A stretch of 64,000 nucleotides of DNA, from UHGV virus genome UHGV-1370141. One strand, 5' to 3'. Made by a program: the position numbers and the translations under genes. The notes below the pieces were generated by a model that saw nothing but the letters and a program-made list of their open reading frames with translations, did no database searches and was not told where the DNA came from. This stretch comes from a virus. This document shows, piece after piece, positions 7,423-49,636 of the stretch (position 1 is its first letter; each line of letters begins with the position of its first letter).

Positions 7423-7905
7423 TTAATTAACCGTAGCTACGTATTTCTTAACCAGATAGGCGAATTCATTAACGCCGATATCGCCAAACCAAACCAGGTA
7501 ACCTGGGTCGACGTTGTAATAGTAACCTACCACGACATGGGTCTGCGGGTTATAAAGCGTCGTGATGTATTCCCAACCACAAGCATTGCTTTTGCAAGCG
7601 GTAGATTCAAGCCAGATTTTGCCGTTGATTTGCACGGGAATAACATCGCCGCCAGGACCATCCATCACGCCATCTTTACCGAATAACCCGTCTAGTCCGA
7701 CAGGTTTCAACGCTTTATCGATTGCGGCTTTATAAGTCGCATCGTCGGTATAGAGTGTGTTGATATCAGGACATGCACTGGGTTGTTCAGCCCAGGCTTC
7801 CGGGTTACAACTAAGTGCTTGTTTTACACTAGCCGCTTCTGCGTTAAAGGTAAAGCCCGTGAACAGAACCGCCACGAAGAACATCAGGGTATGTAAACGT
7901 TTCAT
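7423..7905 (-). CDS. Small secreted protein (signal peptide)
   Basis: MKRLHTLMFFVAVLFTGFTFNAEA signal; contains ACKSNACG loop. Confidence 0.55.
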   Translation of the reverse strand: MKRLHTLMFFVAVLFTGFTFNAEAASVKQALSCNPEAWAEQPSACPDINTLYTDDATYKAAIDKALKPVGLDGLFGKDGVMDGPGGDVIPVQINGKIWLESTACKSNACGWEYITTLYNPQTHVVVGYYYNVDPGYLVWFGDIGVNEFAYLVKKYVATVN

Positions 7906-7923
7906 TGTAAATTCTCCATTAAA

Positions 7924-8800: not shown

Positions 8801-8845
8801 TGTTTTGCTCCTCGTGGGGTTAACAAGTAAAAGAGTTAATCTTAA

Positions 8846-8871
8846 CTCTCACCTAAGTAATATATATCTGA
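8846..8871 (-). promoter_or_regulatory. Conserved 26-bp promoter-like motif, copy 1 of 4
   Basis: Minus-strand TCAGATATATATTACTTAGGTGAGAG about 45 nt upstream of 8339..8800 start. Confidence 0.4.
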
Positions 8872-8892
8872 GATTATTTTTAATGTTAGATA

Positions 8893-13102: not shown

Positions 13103-13180
13103 GGTAGCCTCCACTATTGTTAGTATCCGTTTCGAAAAGAAACGTGCCCATAGGGGTTGAAGTGCGAGTTCAACCCCTAT

Positions 13181-13203
13181 TCACTTAAGTAAAATATATC
13201 TGA
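13181..13203 (-). promoter_or_regulatory. Conserved promoter-like motif, copy 2 of 4 (diverged)
   Basis: Minus strand TCAGATATATTTTACTTAAGTGA in the divergent intergenic region; a 10-bp hairpin (13151-13180) lies adjacent. Confidence 0.35.
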
Positions 13204-13231
13204 ATCTATTTCCGATCTAAGGAACGACCTA

Positions 13232-24601: not shown

Positions 24602-27600
24602 ATGCCGAGAGAAGACGCGGCGCAGTTTAACGGTACGCTAAGCACAGCAACGTACCCTAACCGATTTAATGTGGTCATTCCACCTGAAGGACCTTTTTAT
24701 CGTATCGGATTAAAACTCACAGTAGCCGACGATACCGCGCCTAACGGACGTCGTACTCTGATTGAGGGGTTGGACTACTATTTAGGCTATTACTTTAAAG
24801 AACTCGCAGAAGCTGAACAAGATCAGATTTATGGCGGGTTTATGTTGCTTACTGCAACAGAAATCGAATATGAGATTTTAGGGGTAGCACGTCAATACCG
24901 TGTGCCGCAATCTGAAATCGGGAAGTTCTTAGTTCGTACTGACCTGAAAGACCCACGTAACGTGGACTGGTCTGAACTAATGGCGTATGCGCCGGTTATT
25001 CAGCCTATCGACCCGCCTGCTAACTTAGAAGAAGCGATTCTGAGGGATGAGGTTGTTAAGGCGTTAGAAGACATTCGCAAGAAAATCATTAAGCGTTCTA
25101 CGGAATTAGATGCTGCGTTCAGTGAAGTCACTAACCTGATTTACGAGAACGGGAAAAAGGTTTTCGACGAAGAATTATACCAGCATCACCGTAACCCTAA
25201 CGCGCATCATTACACCACCGATGACATTGCCGCTCTCCCCGTATTAGGACGTGCTGTTGACGCTACAAAAGCGTTTGGGTTGACGATTGACGAGTTGGCT
25301 ACGCTGATGGGTTCAGCGGGTATTGAGCAATCGGACGTTGACCAGTTAATGGGTGAAGCCCTCGGCACCGTTTACGGTCGATGGGGCACCACGAACGGTA
25401 ATGAATTAACGTTTAAAACGTCAGGTGGCCACATCATCAGTATTCGTGGTGATAAGTGGTTAATTACCTCGCCACAACCGTTGGTGATTAAAGCAGACCA
25501 GGACAACAACGAATCGGGTTTAGCGGTTGAATTCAGTGCGGGTCTGAATACGCTTTGGGTTCACTCGGGGTCAGAACAGGATGTATTAGCGCCAGTTTAT
25601 AACTCCGTGTATCTGGTTACGCCAGAAATGGTGAACATGTACCTGACGTCAGTAACGTTGCTCGAAGCAAACGCATATTTCAAAGCGTCAGACACTGTAA
25701 AACCGCACGGTACCGCAAAACAGACTAACCCGGTTACGTTAAACGCGAATATTCCTACAGCGACCGAATCAGTTTATGGGTTGTTCTCGATTACGAATAT
25801 CTCCACGTCTGCGGCGTTAGGTACTGCTATCTCCCAGAAAGCCGTAACCGAACTAAAAGACCGTTTGGACCTGTACGTTGACGATGACTATACCGTTAAC
25901 GGTAAAGGGTTTGTTAAAACAGGTGACAATATGGTGTTAACCTTAACGAAAACCGATTTCGGTATCGATAGGATGGATAACACCACGCCAAGTGCTAAGC
26001 CGGTGACGAAAGCGTTAGCGAACGTGTTGAAAAACAAGAGTTTGAAGACGCACACCCACACTACTGCTGATTTGGATAACGTTCCAATTGGTAGTGCAAC
26101 GGTTGACGGTATCTTACAGCTGTGGGATGCGATTGACACCACTAACGATAAAGCTGTCACGTCACGTCAAGGCTGGTTGTTCGCAAAAGAGATTAAGAAA
26201 GTCTCTGATAAACTCAATACCATCTTACCGGCATGGACGGTAGGTGGTGCGAAGTTCGGTAACAAGAACTTCTTACCTATTCCAGCGTTAGGCAACTACG
26301 CAGGCTACACCAAAAACCAGTCCTACCAGAAAGGGATCGTTGGGTATCAGCAGGGTAAGGTTTATTCACTCCGTAACGGTTCTAACGGCGTTCCAGGTAC
26401 GGAAGCTATCTATTACGGCTATGCTGACATTAACACGTCAAACGCGTTTGTAAATCCGCAGCAAACCTCAGTGAAATATCACCCTGCCGGGATGAGTAAA
26501 TATCCTGGCGTGACCCTAAAAGCGATATTGATTGGTGGGCAGGAAGCGATTATTTGTCTGGGTTCTGACAATAACCGATATTTGGTGCTGTTCAATGGTT
26601 CGATGGACCACACTAAGCACACGGTGGTATGTCGTGTTACGATGCCTATGTACCGTAACGACAACCCCGGCGGTACTACGGAACAGACCTGGAATCCCCG
26701 GCCAGAAGCTGACGATGTTGTGTTAGTTGACGATCACGTTTATCTTCTCCGTTCTTCGGTAAGTAACATTGCTTATGGCGTGGCAGCATGGCGTTTACGT
26801 AAAGCCGATTTGACTACTAATACTGAGTTAGAGTTTGAACGCGTAACCCTAACCGGTGAAATGGGGCAATTCGGAGATAACCTCTGGTTACGATTTGGTC
26901 AGAAGACCGAAGAGTCGCAAACGGGTCAATTCTTTACATTTCTCACGCCGGAGGGTCGTGCTAAATGGACGATCGGACGTAGCTTTGTTCACGGTCCAGA
27001 ATGTAACCACGCCTGTGCTGTACGCGAAAGCGTGATTCGTGTGAACCATATGCCTACTGTGTGGTTTGCAGCGGCCGACGGTACGACGATTAATTTCCGT
27101 CAATGGGCAACAAGTTTTACAATCGATACGTTAACGGGAAAAGTTACGTTAGAAGGAGGCGAACGCTTCCCCATCAAGGCTGATGCTACTACACTCTCGT
27201 TCGCGGATGGTTCAACTGTAGAAACCAGTCGTAAGTGGGGTGGTGGTCTGGCAAACAACCGTTGTTTCGCGACATATGCTAAACCCAACGGTACAGGAAT
27301 GATGCTTTCCTGTTGGCAGATTAACGATGCGGACCAAATGCCTAATGTTTCTATTAAAGGAACACAAGGCAAAGAGCTTTTCGATTATCTGCGTTATGAT
27401 AACCCAAACAACACCTCGGGCGAAGGAACGTTTACCTGGGATAAAGGTCGCGGTTCTATTTATACCATCGGTCTTTCCCATCCGGTCGGCATTGGCGGTT
27501 CGAATAAGGTGTGGTTGTCTAATCCACGTAACCGTTACACCATCGAAGTAGAAGTTGATCCGAACAAACCTTACGATGTTCCAGGTTATGGCGGATACGG

Positions 27601-29785
27601 TCCGAACAACAACCGTCGTGAAGTCGATGCGACGCTTTACGAGCAGCTTAGCTGTATGGCTGCGTGCATGACTCCTGAGGAGCGTCACGGACAGTTAAAC
27701 GGTTGGTATTTGACCAAAGCAGAAACGTTCCCGTATCGCAACATCTACGGTAACTTCGCGTTGTCTTCCGAACGCTTAACGCTAGAAGAAGCCGATCGCC
27801 AGAAAATGATTCGGATGATCGTTGACGGTGCGCCATCTGGTCAAGCAAATGGTTACGCGAACGAACGTATTAGTGCTGCCCATCAAACCGGTAATGCATT
27901 GTTTGCTCTTTGGATGTTGGGTATCAACACCGTGTGCGAATTTGACTTGTTGCAAGTTTCGTGCATGAAAACCTCAAGTAACGGACGTCGAATTCTTGAC
28001 ATCTATTACTTCATGGTGAGTCCATCTAAAGAGAACGGCTACTTACGGTTCAACTCAGCCACCTTTAAGTTGGTGGACTGGTTCTTAGACCTCGATTATG
28101 GTTTAAGTTATCAGTCTCTGAGGGAAGAAGCGGGTAATAAAACGCGACGTGTAGGCCAGCCAATTTTTGCTTCTGCCGACGGTGTAAACTTCGGTCTATG
28201 GCTACCTTATACGCTGACAATACGGAATATCGGGGACCTAAATGCTTTGGGTTACGCTGCGAAGTACACCTTCGACCCTGGGTCGGGTTGGACTCGCGTT
28301 CCTGGTAAGTCACAGTTGCGTCAGATGGCCCCTGCTCATAATCCCGAATCAGGTTGCTACATGGGTGCGGGTAATTGGGACAAGATGGCGTTGATTTTCT
28401 CTAAAGCTGACCGTGTTTTCTGTTCAGGTAACGCGTATACAGCCGCAGAGTTCGTTAACGACACGACGTTCTCAACGGGAGGTCAGGCTGTTATTATTGC
28501 TGGTGTGGAAACAGCGGAAGGTTGGATTCTGTATTTGACAGAAGAAGTCAAATTAGATTTCGGTAGCAGCAGTTACACACTCCCAACGTGGTCTGTGGAT
28601 TTAAGCAGCGAGTTCCCGTCCAATCACGCTAACCAGACGTTCTACGTACACGCTGAGGTGTCGGGTTCTACCGCACAATACCGCATCGGTTTGGAGCAGT
28701 TAGCCGATACTTCAACAAGACTGTTCGTCGGGACAGTAACCACCGATTCCAGCCGTATTACTGATATCAGTATCGACAAAGTAAAACGCTTGGGTCGTGT
28801 AAAAGAGCTGGAAGACCACGCAGCAATTATCGACCAACACGATGTTGCAGCAGCGTTTGACAGAAAGACGGGTCCTCTATTAACGCTGGTTAACAAGCCC
28901 GTTAAAGCACCTACGGCGTCTGCGTCGAAAGGCGAAGGGTATGTTGACGGTCAGAAATGGGGTTCACTGTCTGGCATCACGACGCGTCCTAAGTTACCAA
29001 TTCAGGAAACGTATTCGGGTTATAAGAGTGTGGCCAGAGTAGCGTATGAGAACTGCGCCGACCAATTCTGGCAGAAAGCGGTAGCTGCTAACATTACGAC
29101 AGCCACTGCTTCTGAGAACTCGCAGGCAGCGTCTGCGAACATGAAATGGATAGGTGCGTATACGAAACCGACTACCGGAACGTATGCTTACTTAGCATTG
29201 AGTTTGCGCGTTCAAGTGCCAGGTAATCCAGGAACGGCGAATCGTGCTCTGAAGCTGAGACTTGCTGCACCAACCGGTATTGTTGAAGCTCGGTATGCAA
29301 TAAACCAGGCCGGTGGTACGATGAAAGAGCAGGACGTCACGTTAACCGCCAACCAGTACCTGGAAAAAGAGCACAGTGGGTTTAAACCTGCCGAGGAGGT
29401 TCGTGTTCATGTCACGTTCGTTATTCCGAAGAACGAATATGAAAGTTATCGTACGAAGTTTGGGGCGGTACAGTTGATTGACGTCGAGTCTGGTACTACA
29501 ATCAAACAGGCAGATATTGATACGCCGTTCTTTGTCTTTACGGACACTGAACTGTCTGCACAATCCGGTTTGGTGTATAAAGCGGTCAAGGGTCAGTTTG
29601 ACAATCTCCCGAGTGAACCTACACTCATTGTGCGAGATGGTCAGACCGGAACTAACCCACCGGTGAAATCGTCTTACGCTGACGGTACGCTAACGGTTTA
29701 CGTAGCGACCGCGTACGATGGTGTGAATCCGGCAGAAACTCGCGATATCGACAAACTCCAGTTCAATCTTATGTTTACATCTTAA
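24602..29785 (+). CDS. Giant tail fiber protein (1727 aa)
   Basis: AGGAG RBS; fiber-type motifs TESVYGLFSITNISTSAALGTAISQKAV and HTHTTADLDNVPIGSATVDG. Confidence 0.6.
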   Translation: MPREDAAQFNGTLSTATYPNRFNVVIPPEGPFYRIGLKLTVADDTAPNGRRTLIEGLDYYLGYYFKELAEAEQDQIYGGFMLLTATEIEYEILGVARQYRVPQSEIGKFLVRTDLKDPRNVDWSELMAYAPVIQPIDPPANLEEAILRDEVVKALEDIRKKIIKRSTELDAAFSEVTNLIYENGKKVFDEELYQHHRNPNAHHYTTDDIAALPVLGRAVDATKAFGLTIDELATLMGSAGIEQSDVDQLMGEALGTVYGRWGTTNGNELTFKTSGGHIISIRGDKWLITSPQPLVIKADQDNNESGLAVEFSAGLNTLWVHSGSEQDVLAPVYNSVYLVTPEMVNMYLTSVTLLEANAYFKASDTVKPHGTAKQTNPVTLNANIPTATESVYGLFSITNISTSAALGTAISQKAVTELKDRLDLYVDDDYTVNGKGFVKTGDNMVLTLTKTDFGIDRMDNTTPSAKPVTKALANVLKNKSLKTHTHTTADLDNVPIGSATVDGILQLWDAIDTTNDKAVTSRQGWLFAKEIKKVSDKLNTILPAWTVGGAKFGNKNFLPIPALGNYAGYTKNQSYQKGIVGYQQGKVYSLRNGSNGVPGTEAIYYGYADINTSNAFVNPQQTSVKYHPAGMSKYPGVTLKAILIGGQEAIICLGSDNNRYLVLFNGSMDHTKHTVVCRVTMPMYRNDNPGGTTEQTWNPRPEADDVVLVDDHVYLLRSSVSNIAYGVAAWRLRKADLTTNTELEFERVTLTGEMGQFGDNLWLRFGQKTEESQTGQFFTFLTPEGRAKWTIGRSFVHGPECNHACAVRESVIRVNHMPTVWFAAADGTTINFRQWATSFTIDTLTGKVTLEGGERFPIKADATTLSFADGSTVETSRKWGGGLANNRCFATYAKPNGTGMMLSCWQINDADQMPNVSIKGTQGKELFDYLRYDNPNNTSGEGTFTWDKGRGSIYTIGLSHPVGIGGSNKVWLSNPRNRYTIEVEVDPNKPYDVPGYGGYGPNNNRREVDATLYEQLSCMAACMTPEERHGQLNGWYLTKAETFPYRNIYGNFALSSERLTLEEADRQKMIRMIVDGAPSGQANGYANERISAAHQTGNALFALWMLGINTVCEFDLLQVSCMKTSSNGRRILDIYYFMVSPSKENGYLRFNSATFKLVDWFLDLDYGLSYQSLREEAGNKTRRVGQPIFASADGVNFGLWLPYTLTIRNIGDLNALGYAAKYTFDPGSGWTRVPGKSQLRQMAPAHNPESGCYMGAGNWDKMALIFSKADRVFCSGNAYTAAEFVNDTTFSTGGQAVIIAGVETAEGWILYLTEEVKLDFGSSSYTLPTWSVDLSSEFPSNHANQTFYVHAEVSGSTAQYRIGLEQLADTSTRLFVGTVTTDSSRITDISIDKVKRLGRVKELEDHAAIIDQHDVAAAFDRKTGPLLTLVNKPVKAPTASASKGEGYVDGQKWGSLSGITTRPKLPIQETYSGYKSVARVAYENCADQFWQKAVAANITTATASENSQAASANMKWIGAYTKPTTGTYAYLALSLRVQVPGNPGTANRALKLRLAAPTGIVEARYAINQAGGTMKEQDVTLTANQYLEKEHSGFKPAEEVRVHVTFVIPKNEYESYRTKFGAVQLIDVESGTTIKQADIDTPFFVFTDTELSAQSGLVYKAVKGQFDNLPSEPTLIVRDGQTGTNPPVKSSYADGTLTVYVATAYDGVNPAETRDIDKLQFNLMFTS

Positions 29786-29825
29786 TGACTCGGGACAAGG
29801 ATGTCTCGAATAAAGGAGAGTGGCC

Positions 29826-31025
29826 ATGGCCTCCATTGTTTATCAATATCCTTTAGATTTAACGGGCTCGCTAACGTCTAACGCTGTGGAGCGTCAGATT
29901 ACGTTAGGTACAGGTAAAGTAAACCGTGCTTTTGCTTTTCCTGACGGCCCGTTCTTTGCGGACACGTTCCGTTTACGTGTTGCTAACCGACCGGATGCAA
30001 CCTACGAACGTGGTACCGATTATGAGTTGATTTTTGCACACCCGACTTATGAAAAGCTGACTAAAAACCGCGAGATTGTTATGGCGGTGGTGGTCACTAA
30101 CACAGCGATTCCAACAGATATTACGGTATCTGCGCAGGTCGTTGGTGGACCACAGTCTGCGAACATCGTGGCTATCGAACAGGCGATTGCTGAATTAAAC
30201 CTCGATAACCGTACGGTTGCGTTTAAAGACCTGCGTAACGTACCAGATACATTCCCTTCTGCACCGACGTATAAAGACGTAGGTGACATCTACGGTTTTG
30301 AATATATCATTACCGTATTGGCGGGTATTAAAGATGCGATCAGTTCCGGTGACGCAGTACAGTTAGAGAACATTAAAGCGATTTTAGAAAGCCTGAAAAA
30401 TGACTTCTTAGACGCTTTAAATGCACACATTAACGCAACCGGTAACGTTCACCATCTTGATATTCATCAGGTTAACGGGTTAACAGAAACTGAAATCCGT
30501 GCGCTTATTCGTGACGTCCAGTCTGCCATCGACGCAACGATTACGGAAATCAATGCACTGAAGAAAGCGGACGAAGCTTTAGGTAAACGTATTGACGCTG
30601 TTGTCAACTCTCTGGAAGCGTGGAACGACCAACTTAACGTGGTTGCTCAAAACTACCAGAAAATGGCCTTAGCGTTGGCGAACCTGAACTCGTTAGTGTT
30701 ACAGCTGCAAAAGAGCATTAACGATCTGAACACGAAACTGAATCAGGTTATTCAGCGTGTTGATGCGTTAGAGCAACAGGGTCAAGAAACCGATCAGAAA
30801 ATCGATCAGCTACAACAAAACCTGGATGCGCTTAAACAGCAGGTTAACAATAACACGAACGCAATCAGTCAAGCGAACCAGAACCTACAAAACCACATTG
30901 CGGCAGATGACCCGCACACCGGTTATCTCCACAAGAGATACGGTGGTGTGGTTCAGGCCCCAGTACACGTTAACGCTAACCTGACGTCTCGTGATGACGT
31001 ACAGGCGGAAGCGGGTACGAAATAA
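29826..31025 (+). CDS. Coiled-coil fiber-like protein (399 aa)
   Basis: ATG at 29826 with AAGGAG at correct spacing (track GTG at 29820 is too close); Q/L/N-rich heptad coiled coil in C-terminal half. Confidence 0.55.
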   Translation: MASIVYQYPLDLTGSLTSNAVERQITLGTGKVNRAFAFPDGPFFADTFRLRVANRPDATYERGTDYELIFAHPTYEKLTKNREIVMAVVVTNTAIPTDITVSAQVVGGPQSANIVAIEQAIAELNLDNRTVAFKDLRNVPDTFPSAPTYKDVGDIYGFEYIITVLAGIKDAISSGDAVQLENIKAILESLKNDFLDALNAHINATGNVHHLDIHQVNGLTETEIRALIRDVQSAIDATITEINALKKADEALGKRIDAVVNSLEAWNDQLNVVAQNYQKMALALANLNSLVLQLQKSINDLNTKLNQVIQRVDALEQQGQETDQKIDQLQQNLDALKQQVNNNTNAISQANQNLQNHIAADDPHTGYLHKRYGGVVQAPVHVNANLTSRDDVQAEAGTK

Positions 31026-31034
31026 TTTAATTAC

Positions 31035-31080
31035 AGGAGGAACTATGCTTATGGGCGTAGTCCTCCTCTTTTTTATTTTA
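31035..31080 (+). terminator. Possible terminator before peptide cluster
   Basis: AGGAGGA...TCCTCCT inverted repeat with large loop followed by TTTTTTATTTT. Confidence 0.4.
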
Positions 31081-31090
31081 AGGATACGGA

Positions 31091-31483
31091 ATGGCGATTA
31101 GTGTTAAAAACGTACGCGACCGAATCACCAACGTAGAGAATCAGATGGCGACTGGGCCACGCATAGATCCTCAGGTTGCGTCAAAGGCGCACAATGCCGC
31201 AGACTCTTTTTCAGGTTGGACGCCAGGTCGTCTAGACTGTGGCGGTAGCTGTAGCTGGACGTGCTCGAACGGCTGCACACATGGTTGTACGAGTTGTTCA
31301 GGTACGTGTACATCTGTGTGTGTAGGAAGTTGTTCGTCTGCTTGCGGTAATCAGTGTACCGGATGTTCCGCTACATGCTCTGGTGGGTGCACTGGTTGTA
31401 GCGCTACATGCAGCGGTAGATGTTCCGGGCGTTGTAGCTCGGGTTGTAGTGGCGCGTGTGCGTCTTGTTCAGGGCCGACTTAA
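31091..31483 (+). CDS. Cys-rich precursor-like peptide 1 (130 aa; about 21 Cys in C-terminal 80 aa)
   Basis: Leader-like N-terminus then DCGGSCSWTCS... core of C/S/G/T with regular CxxxC or CxxC spacing; directly upstream of radical-SAM gene. Confidence 0.6.
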   Translation: MAISVKNVRDRITNVENQMATGPRIDPQVASKAHNAADSFSGWTPGRLDCGGSCSWTCSNGCTHGCTSCSGTCTSVCVGSCSSACGNQCTGCSATCSGGCTGCSATCSGRCSGRCSSGCSGACASCSGPT

Positions 31484-31507
31484 TTTAACAGATAGGTATT
31501 ATCTCTG

Positions 31508-32419
31508 ATGATAGAATTAACCACACCGACAGTATCCGATCAATTGTATTCTGAAGCAAGAACGTTAAATGTTATTACTACATCCAAATGTAATCTGGAC
31601 TGTAGTTTCTGCGGCGGAGCCTATTACATGCATAGAGAGGATACAACCGCAGAAGTACAAAAGAAAAGTATTATCGAGGCGCTGGAAAATAACCCAACCA
31701 TTACAAACATTCAATGGTCAGGGGGTGAACCATTACTCGCTTCGCGTAAAATTGATACCCTTATAGAAGAGATAAGGGAGAAGTATCCTCGTTGCGATCA
31801 TTACCTCTATACCAACGGTTTAAAGATGCGTAAAACGCATCTCCCGTTGTTAAAGGGTTTCGATAGTATCTTTTTTAGCATGGACGGATTCAAAGAATCA
31901 GAGCGCCCATTCATGCGGATTATCGAAGAAAAACAATACGAGGTTTTGGAGACAATTTACGAGTTGAAAAATATTCGTACTTGGGCAGTCTTGACGCGAG
32001 AACGTATTGGTGATAAACGCTGGTATGAGGATATAATTGCGTTACATAATCACATCTACCATTACGGTTTTCGCGAGATGTCGCTAGTTTTGGACAAAAA
32101 CATGCCAAAACCGTTATCTCCCGATCACGTTATGAACTTTATTTACGGGTATTTTAGAATTCAGGAAAATATAGAAAGACTGAACTCGTCCAATCGAAGC
32201 GAGTGCGCGTTTACGCTAAACGCGTTATTTGATGAACCCTGTAATACATGTAGTCGTTGTTTTCGTATCGAGTCTGACGGTGCCCAGAACCAAGTAAAAA
32301 ATGTTGAAATCGTAACGCAGCATGGCTGTAGTGACTTGGCCAGAAAGGTTGGCTTAGAAGCTTACGATTATATACGACGAGTGGTAGGGGCTAAGAATAG
32401 GATTCCAGCAAAATTGTGA
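31508..32419 (+). CDS. Radical SAM enzyme (paralog A)
   Basis: CNLDCSFCGG (CxxxCxxC with aromatic) and GGEPLL SAM motif; C-terminal extra Cys (CNTCSRC). Confidence 0.75.
   Translation: MIELTTPTVSDQLYSEARTLNVITTSKCNLDCSFCGGAYYMHREDTTAEVQKKSIIEALENNPTITNIQWSGGEPLLASRKIDTLIEEIREKYPRCDHYLYTNGLKMRKTHLPLLKGFDSIFFSMDGFKESERPFMRIIEEKQYEVLETIYELKNIRTWAVLTRERIGDKRWYEDIIALHNHIYHYGFREMSLVLDKNMPKPLSPDHVMNFIYGYFRIQENIERLNSSNRSECAFTLNALFDEPCNTCSRCFRIESDGAQNQVKNVEIVTQHGCSDLARKVGLEAYDYIRRVVGAKNRIPAKL
32102..32184 (+). repeat. 83-nt tract identical to 34620..34702 (gene-conversion tract between radical-SAM paralogs)
   Basis: Identical DNA read by eye; further identical tracts 31572-31630 = 34090-34148 and 31811-31854 = 34329-34372. 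Confidence 0.7.
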
Positions 32420-32480
32420 TATTTTTACAGAGAATGAATTATAATGTGCCTTAGCTGGCACTGAACCAGTAGGTGTTAAA

Positions 32481-32879
32481 ATGGCGATTGGTTTATCTTC
32501 TTTAAAAGCGCGTTTGGATAATATAGATTCTTCCGCGCTAAAAAACACTGGAGCAGTACAGAACTATATTCGTGGAAAGGCTACGAATAATGTCGATCTA
32601 TTTGGCGGCCAACCTAAAAACCATTACGACTGTGGCGGTAGCTGTAGCTGGACGTGCTCTAGTTGTTCTGGTGGTTGTACCGGTAATGCTTCAGGAGGTT
32701 GTGGTTCCTCATGTTCAGCAAACTGTGTTTCTGGTTGTAGTTCTGGATGTTCAGGTTGCTCTAGTTCATGTTCTGGAGGCTGCACGGGGACATGTATAGG
32801 CCAATGTACGACTACATGTACAGGTACATGTAGTCGTACCTGTCATGGTGGCTGTTCACAATCGTGTACGGGAAGATAA
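32481..32879 (+). CDS. Cys-rich precursor-like peptide 2 (132 aa; about 20 Cys)
   Basis: Shares DCGGSCSWTCS junction (32 nt DNA identical to 31234-31265) then Cys/Ser/Gly/Thr core. Confidence 0.6.
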   Translation: MAIGLSSLKARLDNIDSSALKNTGAVQNYIRGKATNNVDLFGGQPKNHYDCGGSCSWTCSSCSGGCTGNASGGCGSSCSANCVSGCSSGCSGCSSSCSGGCTGTCIGQCTTTCTGTCSRTCHGGCSQSCTGR

Positions 32880-32882
32880 GAA

Positions 32883-33092
32883 ATGATAAGTCTTAAAAAC
32901 ATACGCGACAGATTAGTAACGGCAGAAGGGTACATTACCACAGCAGGAGCAAACAACTATATTGCAAACCAAGGTACAGTGTCATCTACTAATAACCTTT
33001 CTGGTTTACCGTTGAGTCACTATAACTGTAACGGTGGGTGTAGCTGGTCCTGTAGCGGTAGTTGTAGCCGTGGTGCTGGCGGTAGTAAGTAG
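32883..33092 (+). CDS. Short Cys-rich precursor-like peptide 3 (69 aa; 4 Cys)
   Basis: Leader similar to peptides 1 and 2 (KNIRDRL; NNYIANQGT), core NCNGGCSWSCSGSCS. Confidence 0.5.
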   Translation: MISLKNIRDRLVTAEGYITTAGANNYIANQGTVSSTNNLSGLPLSHYNCNGGCSWSCSGSCSRGAGGSK

Positions 33093-33115
33093 TAGAAACG
33101 TGTCAGAGGTATTCA

Positions 33116-34003
33116 ATGAAAAACGATTTACATTTAGCATATAACACTACATTTAACCATCCTTTGCAAATCTCTTCTCCAGATTCTGTACGTTATCATT
33201 TAAGTGATGACGTTCGTTTAATTACCATGCTACCTGGCGAATGGCCGAAATTACGGGGCCGTGATATCGTCAACCGTGATAATATCTCCGTAGAAAATAC
33301 TTTTACAATTCGTGATCTGCCGGTCGAACGTGTGATTGTTTTTACAGGAGATGATGAACTTTATGGAATGATTGTTGATGGTAAATACTTCTTCAGTGAC
33401 GGGGTTTTAAATGCTGGTAGCGATTTAGAACTTTTTTTTACACCGTTTGCTGAGCTTGACGCTAAGCCTATGGTTCGCAGATGGTGGAGTCCAGATTACA
33501 TGGGGGCTTTTCCGTATTACTATACTCTTGTTGGTAAGGATGTTGAAGAGTATTCCGATAGTGAACCATACACCAACATTGAAGGTTATCAGGACCTCGG
33601 AATTGCACATTTAGCTGATTTAATGGCTTATAGCTATAAGTTCGAATGGATTCGTGAACGTTCTGTTTGGAAAGCCATTACTGACGACCATGTTATTACG
33701 AAACGTATTCGTAAACCATGGATGCAACATCTTGTTCAAATACGATTTGGCCAAAGTCCAGTAACCGAGGCTGATATTTCTAAACTTGTTAGTTTTTTAT
33801 TGTCTAAGGTTGAATTGACTGATGAAGAAGCCGAAGCTGTTAAGCCGATGCTTGATCGTATTGTGACCTTAGAAGACCTCAAAAGAATGAATAGTCGTTA
33901 TAACGATCTTAATCGGTTGCTAGAGGCGTATAATTCGACAAAGGTTTTAAAACCTGGAGTCAATTTCGACGAAGATCCGTTGTTCGCTATCGACTATAAT
34001 TAA
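33116..34003 (+). CDS. Hypothetical protein within the radical-SAM cluster
   Basis: 295 aa; GAGGT RBS; no recognised motif. Confidence 0.55.
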   Translation: MKNDLHLAYNTTFNHPLQISSPDSVRYHLSDDVRLITMLPGEWPKLRGRDIVNRDNISVENTFTIRDLPVERVIVFTGDDELYGMIVDGKYFFSDGVLNAGSDLELFFTPFAELDAKPMVRRWWSPDYMGAFPYYYTLVGKDVEEYSDSEPYTNIEGYQDLGIAHLADLMAYSYKFEWIRERSVWKAITDDHVITKRIRKPWMQHLVQIRFGQSPVTEADISKLVSFLLSKVELTDEEAEAVKPMLDRIVTLEDLKRMNSRYNDLNRLLEAYNSTKVLKPGVNFDEDPLFAIDYN

Positions 34004-34025
34004 ATAATTAATGGAGTCACCTGCA

Positions 34026-34949
34026 ATGGCGACCAATGCGGAACCAAAATTATCAGATCAGTTATTTGACAATCCAACAATATTAGCCGTTATTACTACA
34101 TCCAAATGTAATCTGGACTGTAGTTTCTGCGGCGGAGCCTATTACATGAATCGTGAAGATTCTTCTCGAGAGTTTCAACGTGACCGAATTATGGAGGCGT
34201 TAGAAGCTAACCCAACAATCACCGAGATTCAATGGACGGGTGGTGAGCCTTTGTTAGCCACTCGTAAAATTGAGGCGTTTGTTGACGAGTTAAAAGTAAT
34301 TCGTCCAGAGCTCAAACATCAGTTATATACCAACGGTTTAAAGATGCGTAAAACGCATCTCCCGTTGTTAAAACAATTTGATAATGTGTATGTTAGCATC
34401 GACGGGTTTGAGTTGTCTGAACGCCCTTTTAAGCGTTTTATTAACGATGGTTGCTACGAAGCTTTAGAAGTAATGCATGAGCTTGAAAATGTTCATACAT
34501 GGGCCGTTTTAACTCGAGAACAGTTGGGTAACAAACGGTGGCATGAAGACATTATTGAGCTTCATAATGCGATCTATCACTACGGTTATCGTACCATGAC
34601 GTTGCTGTTAGACGCGAATATGCCAAAACCGTTATCTCCCGATCACGTTATGAACTTTATTTACGGGTATTTTAGAATTCAGGAAAATATAGAAAGACTG
34701 AATGTTTCCAACTCGAAAAGGTGTGACTATGTCGTAAGCAAAGTTTTTGATGGTGGGTGTAACGTATGCAGCAATAGTTTATGGTTAAGAGCAGATGGAA
34801 CCGAATATCAGTTGCAAAATGCCCCGAGATTATTAGAATCGGGATGTAACCAATTAGCTTGTTCCATCGGGTTAGAAGCCTACGAGTATATTCGACGAGT
34901 GGTTATGGCCAACCGTAATAGTGGAGTATTAAATGAACCAAGAAAATAA
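34026..34949 (+). CDS. Radical SAM enzyme (paralog B)
   Basis: ATG at 34026 has GGAG RBS (track ATG 34011 has none); CNLDCSFCGG, GGEPLL; identical DNA tracts shared with paralog A. Confidence 0.75.
   Translation: MATNAEPKLSDQLFDNPTILAVITTSKCNLDCSFCGGAYYMNREDSSREFQRDRIMEALEANPTITEIQWTGGEPLLATRKIEAFVDELKVIRPELKHQLYTNGLKMRKTHLPLLKQFDNVYVSIDGFELSERPFKRFINDGCYEALEVMHELENVHTWAVLTREQLGNKRWHEDIIELHNAIYHYGYRTMTLLLDANMPKPLSPDHVMNFIYGYFRIQENIERLNVSNSKRCDYVVSKVFDGGCNVCSNSLWLRADGTEYQLQNAPRLLESGCNQLACSIGLEAYEYIRRVVMANRNSGVLNEPRK
34620..34702 (+). repeat. 83-nt tract identical to 32102..32184
   Basis: See paired repeat. Confidence 0.7.
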
Positions 34950-36255
34950 TTACCCGAAACAGTTGACTTACCAGATTGTTACAAACTTGTCGTGTAATTT
35001 GGACTGTGAGTATTGTTACGAGCGTAAATATCCCCGCAATAACAAAGCAGCAGATATTGTAGATTTTCTTCATGCCTGTTTCGAGCGTGATAAAGATTTA
35101 CCAAACGTAGAAGTCGTCATTGACATTATCGGCGGCGAGCCGTTTATGCAGCCTAAGCTTCTAATGGCCGCTTTCGAAACAGCCGAGCAGTTGTGTGAAG
35201 AACATAAACGCCCGTTTATGTTTAGTATCTCTACTAATGGGACATTATTAGATAGGCCGTTGAACAGGGAAATTATTGAACGTTGGAAGGACAGACTTTC
35301 TATCGGGGTGTCTATTGATGGGTTACCTGAGTCGCACGATAAGTACCGTATTTTTACAACGAGTCGCGAAGGTTCTTACGAGGCCGCTGTACGTGGTTAC
35401 AATTATCTAAAAGAAGTAGGTATCGCGGAGCTTGGGGTTAAAGCGACATTTACTTTGGAAACGCTCCCACATTATGCGGCGGGTATGAAATCCCTAATCG
35501 ATTTGGCTGGAGGTGGAACCATTTCTGGTAACGTAACCTTCGAAGACATTATGCCACGGAGTATGGCTACGTCGATAGCGCTACAAATGATGGATGTAGT
35601 CGATTATTGGGTTGAAAAGGGTTTACACACCAACCCACGTAATACCCTATCACATATCATCCCGGAAGGGTTAGATTTCGACACTATCTGGGAACCGAAC
35701 TGGCGGGATCAGCTACTTTACAACGATACTGTACGTTTAAACCCGGAACGCTTGCGTCCGTTCTGCGGGACATTAACTCACATGACTTGTTTAGGGTTTG
35801 ACAGGAAGATTTTCGGTTGTAACCGTTTCATGTCGACTGTAACGTCACGTTCTGCGGTATTTGAGTTAGTCGGTCGTGAGTTTGTTAGCTTAGACGGTGG
35901 GAAACTGCTGGAAGAGATTCAGACGCAATACACCAACTATCCTGAGACGTGCTTAGGTTGTCCGATGAAACACGCTTGTGGTAGCTGTGCAGCAGCTTCC
36001 TACGAGAATGGGGAAGGGACGTTAGAAGACCGTAAAGCGTATCACGCTGAACGTCGTCAATGTGGTTGGACAACTGCAAAATTAATGGTCGCGGAATACT
36101 GGAAACAGAAGATGGGTACAACATCTGTGAAGGATTTCCACGATAATAGCATGTGTTACTGCCCTCGCTGTGTACGTGAACGTGCCCAAAAAGAAAAACA
36201 ATTGAGAGAAGCCAAAGATGAAGCCAATTCTGATCCACAATATTACGAAGCGTAA
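34933..36255 (+). CDS. Radical SAM enzyme with C-terminal SPASM-like Cys cluster
   Basis: CNLDCEYC, GGEPFM; C-terminal FCGTLTHMTC...CLGCPMKHACGSC...CYCPRC; start overlaps upstream stop by 17 nt. Confidence 0.75.
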   Translation: MNQENNYPKQLTYQIVTNLSCNLDCEYCYERKYPRNNKAADIVDFLHACFERDKDLPNVEVVIDIIGGEPFMQPKLLMAAFETAEQLCEEHKRPFMFSISTNGTLLDRPLNREIIERWKDRLSIGVSIDGLPESHDKYRIFTTSREGSYEAAVRGYNYLKEVGIAELGVKATFTLETLPHYAAGMKSLIDLAGGGTISGNVTFEDIMPRSMATSIALQMMDVVDYWVEKGLHTNPRNTLSHIIPEGLDFDTIWEPNWRDQLLYNDTVRLNPERLRPFCGTLTHMTCLGFDRKIFGCNRFMSTVTSRSAVFELVGREFVSLDGGKLLEEIQTQYTNYPETCLGCPMKHACGSCAAASYENGEGTLEDRKAYHAERRQCGWTTAKLMVAEYWKQKMGTTSVKDFHDNSMCYCPRCVRERAQKEKQLREAKDEANSDPQYYEA

Positions 36256-36790
36256 ATTCCGTTTTCTGGAAAAGTTTTTAGAAACTACGAAACTGTTTGG
36301 CTGTTATGTGCAGATTAACGGCGAAGATTTCAATGACGATGTTAAGCGTTTATTAATTCGTCACGGAATCACCGTTGTTATCCCGATGTATTGTACAGAA
36401 CTTACCGAACTTTCTGTGGCCGAAATCGAGAAACAAAATCCAGGCTTTGAACAGCGCGTGCTGGAATTTCCTAAACATAAAATCGTTCTTTTACGCCGCG
36501 CTTTGCAAGAGCCGAGCGTTGAATCTGTTGCTGCTCTAGGTTTATCGTTTCCTGGTGTGACAATTTATGTCACACGAAACCCAGAGTCCACCATCGATGG
36601 TTTTTACGATGAAAGGGAAACTTTTCATAGTTTAGTTTATCCCGAGCTTACAGAAGACGAACGTCAAGGACTACATATTGACTGGGACTCAAATTTTGAT
36701 AGTAAGTTTCGTAAAATCGATTTTGATCTTCTGATCGAGCTGGGTTTAATTAAAGGAGAAGACGAATGCCTGCTCTTGACAAAAGCTTAA
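36218..36790 (+). CDS. Hypothetical protein (cluster-associated)
   Basis: 190 aa; overlaps upstream gene end, translationally coupled. Confidence 0.5.
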   Translation: MKPILIHNITKRKFRFLEKFLETTKLFGCYVQINGEDFNDDVKRLLIRHGITVVIPMYCTELTELSVAEIEKQNPGFEQRVLEFPKHKIVLLRRALQEPSVESVAALGLSFPGVTIYVTRNPESTIDGFYDERETFHSLVYPELTEDERQGLHIDWDSNFDSKFRKIDFDLLIELGLIKGEDECLLLTKA

Positions 36791-45974: not shown

Positions 45975-46019
45975 GGTATATGCTCCTAAAATGGTTTTAG
46001 TTAAGTGAGAGCTTTCGTA

Positions 46020-46045
46020 CTCTCACCTAAGTAATATATATCTGA
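46020..46045 (-). promoter_or_regulatory. Conserved 26-bp promoter-like motif, copy 3 of 4
   Basis: Minus strand TCAGATATATATTACTTAGGTGAGAG about 50 nt upstream of 45480..45974. Confidence 0.4.
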
Positions 46046-46056
46046 AAATATTTTAA

Positions 46057-49497: not shown

Positions 49498-49563
49498 AAT
49501 TGTCCTTCCTTCTTAATGTACTCTTCAACTCAGCTATAACTAGTGGAGTGAACGTAATTTTCA

Positions 49564-49589
49564 CTCTCCCCTAGGTAATATATATCTGA
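49564..49589 (-). promoter_or_regulatory. Conserved 26-bp promoter-like motif, copy 4 of 4
   Basis: Minus strand TCAGATATATATTACCTAGGGGAGAG about 65 nt upstream of 49054..49497. Confidence 0.4.
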
Positions 49590-49636
49590 GAAAAAATAAA
49601 AAAGGTAGTAGGGGCTAAGCCCCTACTACCTAAAAT

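Follow-up and report, generated by a model that had tools for sequence, protein, structure and literature searches.

Among bacterial paralogs, ectopic gene conversion and concerted evolution are well known from tufA/tufB of Salmonella and from the rRNA operons, where the logic of Sawyer's GENECONV applies. In phages, Tetart et al. are said to have described, in 1998, recombination at conserved motifs ('His boxes') in the distal tail-fibre/adhesin genes of T-even phages. The locus analysed here lies in a stretch of 64,000 nucleotides (nt) of UHGV virus genome UHGV-1370141 (one strand, numbered 5' to 3', and called the window throughout), which comes from a lytic jumbo phage whose relatives include SPN3US, a phage of Salmonella, and the Erwinia phages allied to it. 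It holds two small radical S-adenosylmethionine (rSAM) genes, paralog A (31508..32419, + strand, 303 amino acids [aa]) and paralog B (34026..34949, + strand, 307 aa from the ATG at 34026), together with genes for Cys-rich precursor peptides, two of which, P1 (31091..31483, + strand) and P2 (32481..32879, + strand), flank A, an extra copy inserted between them. The two rSAM genes have drifted far apart except in three short tracts that are still identical to the last nucleotide, and sequence comparison makes it very probable that these tracts are the footprints of repeated short-patch, non-reciprocal homologous recombination, that is, of ectopic gene conversion between the paralogs.

Identical tracts in two diverged rSAM genes

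The first tract (A 31571-31630 = B 34089-34148) is 60 nt long and encodes residues 22-41 of A, VITTSKCNLDCSFCGGAYYM; the second (A 31808-31854 = B 34326-34372) covers 47 nt and residues 101-116, YTNGLKMRKTHLPLLK; and the third (A 32102-32184 = B 34620-34702) extends over 83 nt and residues 199-226, MPKPLSPDHVMNFIYGYFRIQENIERLN. All three are exact, lie on the + strand and share one ungapped A-to-B offset of 2518 nt. An earlier, sequence-only reading of this DNA had reported the three pairs as identical within otherwise diverged genes, and its coordinates hold, although for two of them the maximal run is slightly longer than was stated (60 and 47 nt). Alignment likewise bears out the contrast on which that reading insisted: the tracts are no shorter than it read them, and divergence is concentrated outside them, A and B being identical at 190/190 nucleotides within the tracts and at 418/719 (58%) elsewhere, with an overall protein identity of 61%. 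A repeat of the same kind joins the precursor genes, in which an exact 32-nt segment encoding DCGGSCSWTCS is shared by P1 (31235..31266) and P2 (32628..32659), both on the + strand. This repeat had also been claimed and is real, but its first copy had been misplaced: the segment at 31234-31265 mismatches at 29 of 32 positions, and a shift of +1 gives the exact match. The third precursor, P3, reaches only 69% identity to the same 32-mer. No other exact direct repeats of at least 30 nt were found across the 64-kb window, save one 36-nt intergenic motif family. This AT-rich motif (ACTCTCACCTAAGTAATATATATCTGAG...) occurs four times with 72-100% identity, at 8845-8880, 13177-13212, 46019-46054 and 49563-49598, and is a possible promoter or other regulatory sequence of the phage.

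The evidence that carries the case for conversion is that variants inside the tracts sort by genome and not by gene. A paralog A between P1 and P2 is found only in the window, in a locus that is ~95% identical to it over the region (L003, to which L014 is identical), and in a lineage represented by four contigs of 222-230 kb (L007-L010), among them NCBI JACXXQ010000002.1. Within the tracts, four silent sites separate the window from L003, all of them in tract 2, and at each one the two paralogs of a genome agree; A and B thus match at 190/190 positions in the window and again in L003, whereas every cross-genome comparison gives 186/190. In L007/L008 both copies have Ser (TCG) where both window copies have Thr (ACG), and both have G at alignment column 660. 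The limits of the tracts move as well: those of the window lie at alignment columns 64-123, 301-347 and 595-677, those of L007/L008 at 76-126, 310-347 and 584-678, and tract 3 of L003 spans 595-678. The precursor 32-mer behaves in the same way, being identical between P1 and P2 within each genome and reading GAC TGT GGC...ACG in the window, GGT in L003 and GAT TGC GGA...ACA...TCA in L007; in L004, where paralog A is absent, the 11 encoded residues are still shared by P1 and P2, yet 6/32 nt differ. Parallel mutation at so many sites is not credible, and the only simple explanation of such a pattern is that sequence was copied from one paralog into the other once the lineages had separated. At least two conversion events postdate the split of the ~95%-identical genomes, and since the window and L003 are only ~5% diverged, conversion is recent and presumably ongoing. 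The ongoing gene conversion that had been proposed for this locus is supported, the tracts being identical within each of three genomes, different between genomes and different in their edges.

Identity of this kind might be suspected of being an artefact of assembly or polishing, with the reads of one paralog correcting the other in similar segments, and three short A/B mosaic contigs (L011-L013, discussed below) do show that assemblies, or real molecules, can jump at the tracts. Polishing, however, cannot make 83 nt of identity from 58%-identical sequence, the tract edges are sharp, and independent NCBI, ENA and IMG/VR assemblies show the same architecture, four or more independent long contigs (200-230 kb) of separate origin having it with tract sequences specific to their lineage. 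We give an artefact hardly any credence.

Between A and B, none of the 58 conserved degenerate codons in the tracts shows a synonymous difference, as against 66/115 outside (Fisher p = 2.6e-16), and in 20,000 shuffles of codon columns the observed run lengths were never reached, even when only codons of conserved residues were permuted among themselves. Strong constraint had been put forward as another possible cause of the mosaic. Taken at face value it would mean that purifying selection acts directly on the nucleotides or the RNA, whether at the level of codons, of RNA structure or of a binding site, with no copying at all; and the tracts do overlap the most conserved segments of the protein, where orthologues are 78-88% identical compared with 60-79% elsewhere. 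Yet pairs of orthologues (window B with the genes of L004 and L005, those two with each other, L004 with SPN3US, and pEa_SNUABM_29 with SPN3US) diverge in an ordinary way at the synonymous sites of the very same segments: 35-49% of conserved codons differ synonymously, not significantly fewer than in the rest of the gene, and the longest identical runs are unremarkable. Because orthologues diverge silently here, nothing intrinsic to the segments forbids silent change. Selection of this sort would also need an RNA or DNA element common to all orthologues, and none is seen; nor does it sit well with tract sequences that differ between genomes while both copies change together, or with edges that shift between lineages. 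It is a very improbable explanation, and constraint as a stand-alone cause can be set aside. Four of the six tract edges sit on synonymous differences in codons of residues conserved between A and B (Leu100, Lys116, Asn198 and Asn226). Constraint matters indirectly, in that the tracts coincide with the three most conserved segments of the protein.

What these segments are is suggested by an AlphaFold model of A (21 homologues, mean predicted local distance difference test score [pLDDT] 82.5). Tract 1 corresponds in the model to beta-1 and the CX3CX2C cluster loop, the Fe-S/SAM motif; tract 2 to the end of beta-3, with a YTNG motif that we take to have a role in binding the SAM ribose, and to the helix that follows; and tract 3 to the MPKPLSPDHVMNF loop after beta-6 and a long helix (205-229), upstream of a C-terminal Cys motif in which C245, C248 and C274 are invariant. 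By fold search the best structural matches of the model are CteB, SuiB and SkfB, maturases of ribosomally synthesised and post-translationally modified peptides (RiPPs), and anSME; this was more informative than comparing A with the PDB by sequence, which returned weak, generic rSAM matches only. CteB and SuiB align to the model over the core only (TMq 0.53-0.63), and the model of A shows no N-terminal domain resembling a RiPP recognition element (RRE), with beta-1 starting at residue 19 and residues 1-10 disordered. As modelled, the tracts are the most conserved segments of the catalytic core and not a peptide-recognition module, the role that the earlier reading had named beside the active site. 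Downstream of tract 3 the C-terminal Cys motif reads CNTCSRC in A (32240-32262), with one more Cys, compared with CNVCSNS in B (34758-34780), and B has an extra Cys in a later motif, GCNQLAC; the ligands of the auxiliary cluster may, to judge from these motifs, differ between the paralogs.

Homologous recombination requires a minimal length of uninterrupted identity. The partners in conversion would be the old small rSAM genes, 2.5 kb apart, and the core-motif segments of P1 and P2, 1.4 kb apart, with recombination during phage DNA replication starting or resolving only where enough uninterrupted identity remains. At 58% identity, only the three most constrained coding segments would still supply enough of it. 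Each conversion would then reset identity within the islands, making them self-sustaining, while the flanks would drift beyond recombination's reach. Crossovers between the direct repeats would remove or double the intervening 2.5 kb, with P2, P3 and a 295-aa gene, and are presumably counter-selected, which would leave conversion patches as the visible outcome.

Several considerations weigh against conversion. Recombination is deduced from sequence comparison throughout and no event has been seen directly; the A-bearing lineages are only three, two of them close to each other; and the tracts correspond almost exactly to blocks of amino-acid identity, so that selection certainly shapes where they survive. 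The relative roles of recombination mechanics and of selection against chimeric proteins are inseparable here. A further point concerns direction: at sites invariant among orthologues, derived states amount to 6% in the tracts compared with 9.5% for B and 26% for A outside them, which makes the tracts more B-like, though the 6% figure is confounded by the stronger conservation of the tract segments. B-to-A transfer, taken from this frequency to be the main direction, was dropped as such after polarisation with L007 showed transfer from A to B at two edges. Ile23, the state of all A genes, is found in the B genes of the window and of L003, where the B gene of L007, the gene of L004 and all other orthologues have Val; and the B gene of L007 shares His42 with the A genes, in place of the Asn or Asp of other B-type genes. 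From these residues, A-to-B transfer is demonstrable at the two edges concerned. The overall direction is probably mixed, with B-to-A transfer probably occurring as well.

Age of paralog A and exchange between phages

Among related phages the small rSAM gene varies between one copy and two; the sequence-only reading had proposed such a comparison for the number of precursor/rSAM pairs. A single small rSAM gene is found at the position of B in SPN3US (L002), in pEa_SNUABM_29 (L001), in L004-L006 from IMG/VR and in the metagenome contigs L016-L017, and all of the 64 matching GenBank phage records (64/64) have one small-rSAM match each. A metagenome scan gave no new A-bearing lineage, L014 being the same as L003, and L015 the same contig as L007. 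As for the precursors of the single-copy phages, P1 and P2 are found in L004-L006, and P3 also in L001-L002 and L004. Each of P1, P2 and P3 has an orthologue in phages with one small rSAM gene, and so none of the precursors was duplicated together with A.

This bears on the proposal that the mosaic results from recent duplication, in which a precursor-rSAM unit would have been duplicated in tandem and the tracts would be identity left over after fast divergence elsewhere. The copies do lie only 2.5 kb apart in direct orientation, and a neighbour-joining tree that includes the tracts pulls A beside the clade of B and the L004 gene, if weakly (54% bootstrap). Once the tracts are masked, however, the A genes form a long branch that excludes B and every single-copy orthologue (70% bootstrap). 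Outside the tracts, gene A is equally far from B and from the L004 gene (58-59% nucleotide identity); its slightly greater closeness to these two than to SPN3US-type genes (52%) could be taken in favour of duplication, but synonymous divergence between A and B there is saturated (dS ~3.3, with a nonsynonymous dN of 0.44), which protein-level selection cannot produce. Moreover, the P1 that adjoins A is the orthologue of the P1 of single-copy phages, so that no unit was duplicated, and the genome-specific covariation described above demands copying after the lineages had split. Recent duplication is most improbable, and the part of the earlier interpretation that invoked it does not stand: the saturated dS and the position in the masked tree imply that A, far from being a recent duplicate, is a paralog that is old or diverged long ago, or else came in from a relative that has not been sampled. 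The tracts, for their part, distort gene trees, as the displacement of A on their inclusion illustrates.

Exchange between phages has also touched the locus. Between the window and L007, identity reaches 93.5% over the body of gene A (31583-32392, alignment columns 76-885) but falls to 71% over its opening 75 nt, to 75% in gene B and to 61-83% in the genes nearby. A body so much more alike than its flanks implies that gene A was recently exchanged between lineages, with one junction inside tract 1. The whole mosaic might on this evidence be attributed mainly to modular shuffling at conserved linkers between co-infecting phages, and not to copying within a genome. That would explain why A is alike in different lineages and would place its 5' junction in tract 1, but it leaves the match between A and B within a single genome unaccounted for; identity within genomes combined with differences between them needs copying from A to B or B to A, whether intramolecular or between sister copies of a genome. 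We consider inter-phage exchange very unlikely as the main source of the tracts, for which conversion between the paralogs remains the preferred explanation.

Three short metagenome contigs from ENA switch parent exactly at tracts 1 and 3. In L011 (2733 nt), P1 is followed by a gene with the 5' part of A and the 3' part of B and then by the large rSAM gene of the locus, an arrangement that would be a deletion fusing A-5' to B-3'; L012 (1482 nt) is an A locus with a B-like middle; and L013 (1366 nt) has B-5'/A-3' followed by P2, which would be the junction reciprocal to that of L011. These contigs may be real products of deletion, conversion or duplication, or they may be assembly chimeras; either way, it is at the tracts that a short-read assembly, or a real genome, can pass from one copy to the other. 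A bolder idea, and one that we think rather unlikely, is that the tracts serve as built-in recombination linkers, at which the N-terminal, central and C-terminal (auxiliary-cluster) parts of the rSAM enzymes are exchanged as modules, both between the paralogs and between co-infecting phages. If so, new maturase variants would arise beside fast-evolving Cys-rich precursors, much as adhesins are shuffled at the His boxes of T-even phages, and L011-L013 and the tract-1 junction of gene A would be natural products, not chimeras.

The peptide-rSAM cassette

The region 31000-36300 has a sole and weak nucleotide match among phages in GenBank (megablast), to Erwinia phage pEa_SNUABM_29 at 72.8% identity. 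The 64 phage records matched by the small rSAM protein belong nearly all to SPN3US-like jumbo phages of Salmonella, Erwinia, Escherichia and Cronobacter, and the informative close relatives were obtained from IMG/VR and from protein-cluster look-ups.

The locus begins after genes for a 1727-aa fibre-like protein (24602-29785) and a 401-aa coiled-coil virion protein (29820-31025). P1 (130 aa) consists of an N-terminal leader and a C-terminal CXXX-repeat core rich in Cys, Gly and Ser; it belongs to phrog_6085 (E 4.9e-40) and is kept in SPN3US, in pEa_SNUABM_29 and in L003-L007. P2 (132 aa), which lies beyond paralog A, also has a CXXX-repeat core and also falls in phrog_6085, and in the sequences of both P1 and P2 there is a Cys at every fourth residue. 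P3 (32883..33092, + strand, 69 aa) has a leader of the same type as P1 and P2 and a short NCNGGCSWSCSGSC core. Between the precursors and rSAM B lies the gene for a conserved phrog_8030 protein of 295 aa (33116..34003, + strand), for which no Pfam or NCBIfam match was obtained, the PHROG match being the only one. The spacer between P3 and this gene is 23 nt long in the window (33093-33115), compared with ~460 nt of extra sequence in the L007 lineage, within which there is an additional 96-aa open reading frame (L007:7752-8042, also in L008-L010). Paralog B follows and is the syntenic orthologue of the single copy of other phages (L001, L002 and L004-L006); an in-frame ATG at 34011 would give a protein of 312 aa, and a GGAG lies 9 nt upstream of the ATG at 34026. 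The last gene is that of the large rSAM protein (34933..36255, + strand, 440 aa), which is without identical tracts and is related to CXXX-repeat-target and PapB-type peptide maturases.

Both small proteins belong to the radical SAM superfamily, with PF04055 scores of 50.4 bits for A and 52.8 bits for B against a gathering cut-off of 29.5; the CX3CX2C motif is present, and CNLDCSFC is invariant. The best family matches of the 440-aa protein are TIGR04115, the CXXX-repeat-target maturase (119.8 bits, E 1.8e-34), and PapB (113 bits), both scores lying far below the curated cut-offs (350 bits for TIGR04115). On the peptide side, P2 scores 17.6 and 17.1 bits with the target-peptide models TIGR04114 and TIGR04117, below their curated cut-offs of 20 and 50, and P1 has no match to either model. 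By sequence, then, the cassette resembles a RiPP-type peptide-maturation system, yet would stand outside the TIGR families by their own thresholds. Placed immediately after the genes for the tail-fibre-like and virion proteins, it is a conserved feature of the SPN3US-like jumbo phages; no literature on this cassette or on these conversions was found. In GenBank its Cys-rich precursor genes are missing or mis-annotated in the relatives SPN3US and pEa_SNUABM_29. The SPN3US record (NC_027402, L002:5040-6069) has a wrong-frame coding sequence over P2 (L002:5516-5851) and leaves P1 and P3 unannotated; that of pEa_SNUABM_29 (L001:7098-8120) places opposite-strand coding sequences over P1 and P2 (L001:7196-7408 and 7643-7915).

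Comparison with known systems

The locus offers a view of concerted evolution on a micro scale in a lytic jumbo phage, in which islands of 38-95 nt are kept identical in genes otherwise saturated with substitutions. The tracts mark where recombination within and between phages can occur, which is relevant to the engineering of SPN3US-like phages. The additional rSAM gene, no fresh duplicate but a module of long standing that evolves on its own and was exchanged recently, has a bearing on the diversification of the CXXX-repeat peptide/rSAM cassette.

As a process this is not novel: the locus is a new instance of the well-known one of gene conversion and concerted evolution. As in tufA/tufB and the rRNA operons, diverged paralogs share short patches that are identical even at silent sites, and variants sort by genome and not by gene. 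The differences lie in degree and in setting, since the phage paralogs are extremely diverged (58% at the nucleotide level, dS saturated), homogenisation is confined to three islands of 38-95 nt instead of covering most of the gene, and the genome is that of a lytic jumbo phage. With the His boxes of T-even phages the locus has in common that short conserved coding motifs in diverged phage genes act as recombination sites, as the inter-lineage junction in tract 1 of A exemplifies. There, however, modules that determine host range are swapped between phages, whereas here the copying is mainly between paralogs within a genome, the genes are those of enzymes, and no change of function has been demonstrated.

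As a cassette, the locus is like the CXXX-repeat peptide and rSAM/SPASM maturase systems (TIGR04114/TIGR04117, TIGR04115) and those with PapB-type ranthipeptide maturases, in that peptides with a Cys at every fourth residue adjoin rSAM genes. It differs from them in being phage-borne and placed after tail-fibre-like genes, in having two or three rSAM genes, in the lack of an RRE in the small rSAM proteins and in scores below the cut-offs. Its closest counterpart is the locus of SPN3US (Seoulvirus) and related Erwinia and Salmonella jumbo phages annotated as 'putative radical SAM superfamily protein 1/2', with which it shares the gene order 1727 aa, 401 aa, P1, P2, P3, 295 aa, small rSAM, large rSAM, and from which the window lineage is set apart by an extra, highly diverged small rSAM gene between P1 and P2.

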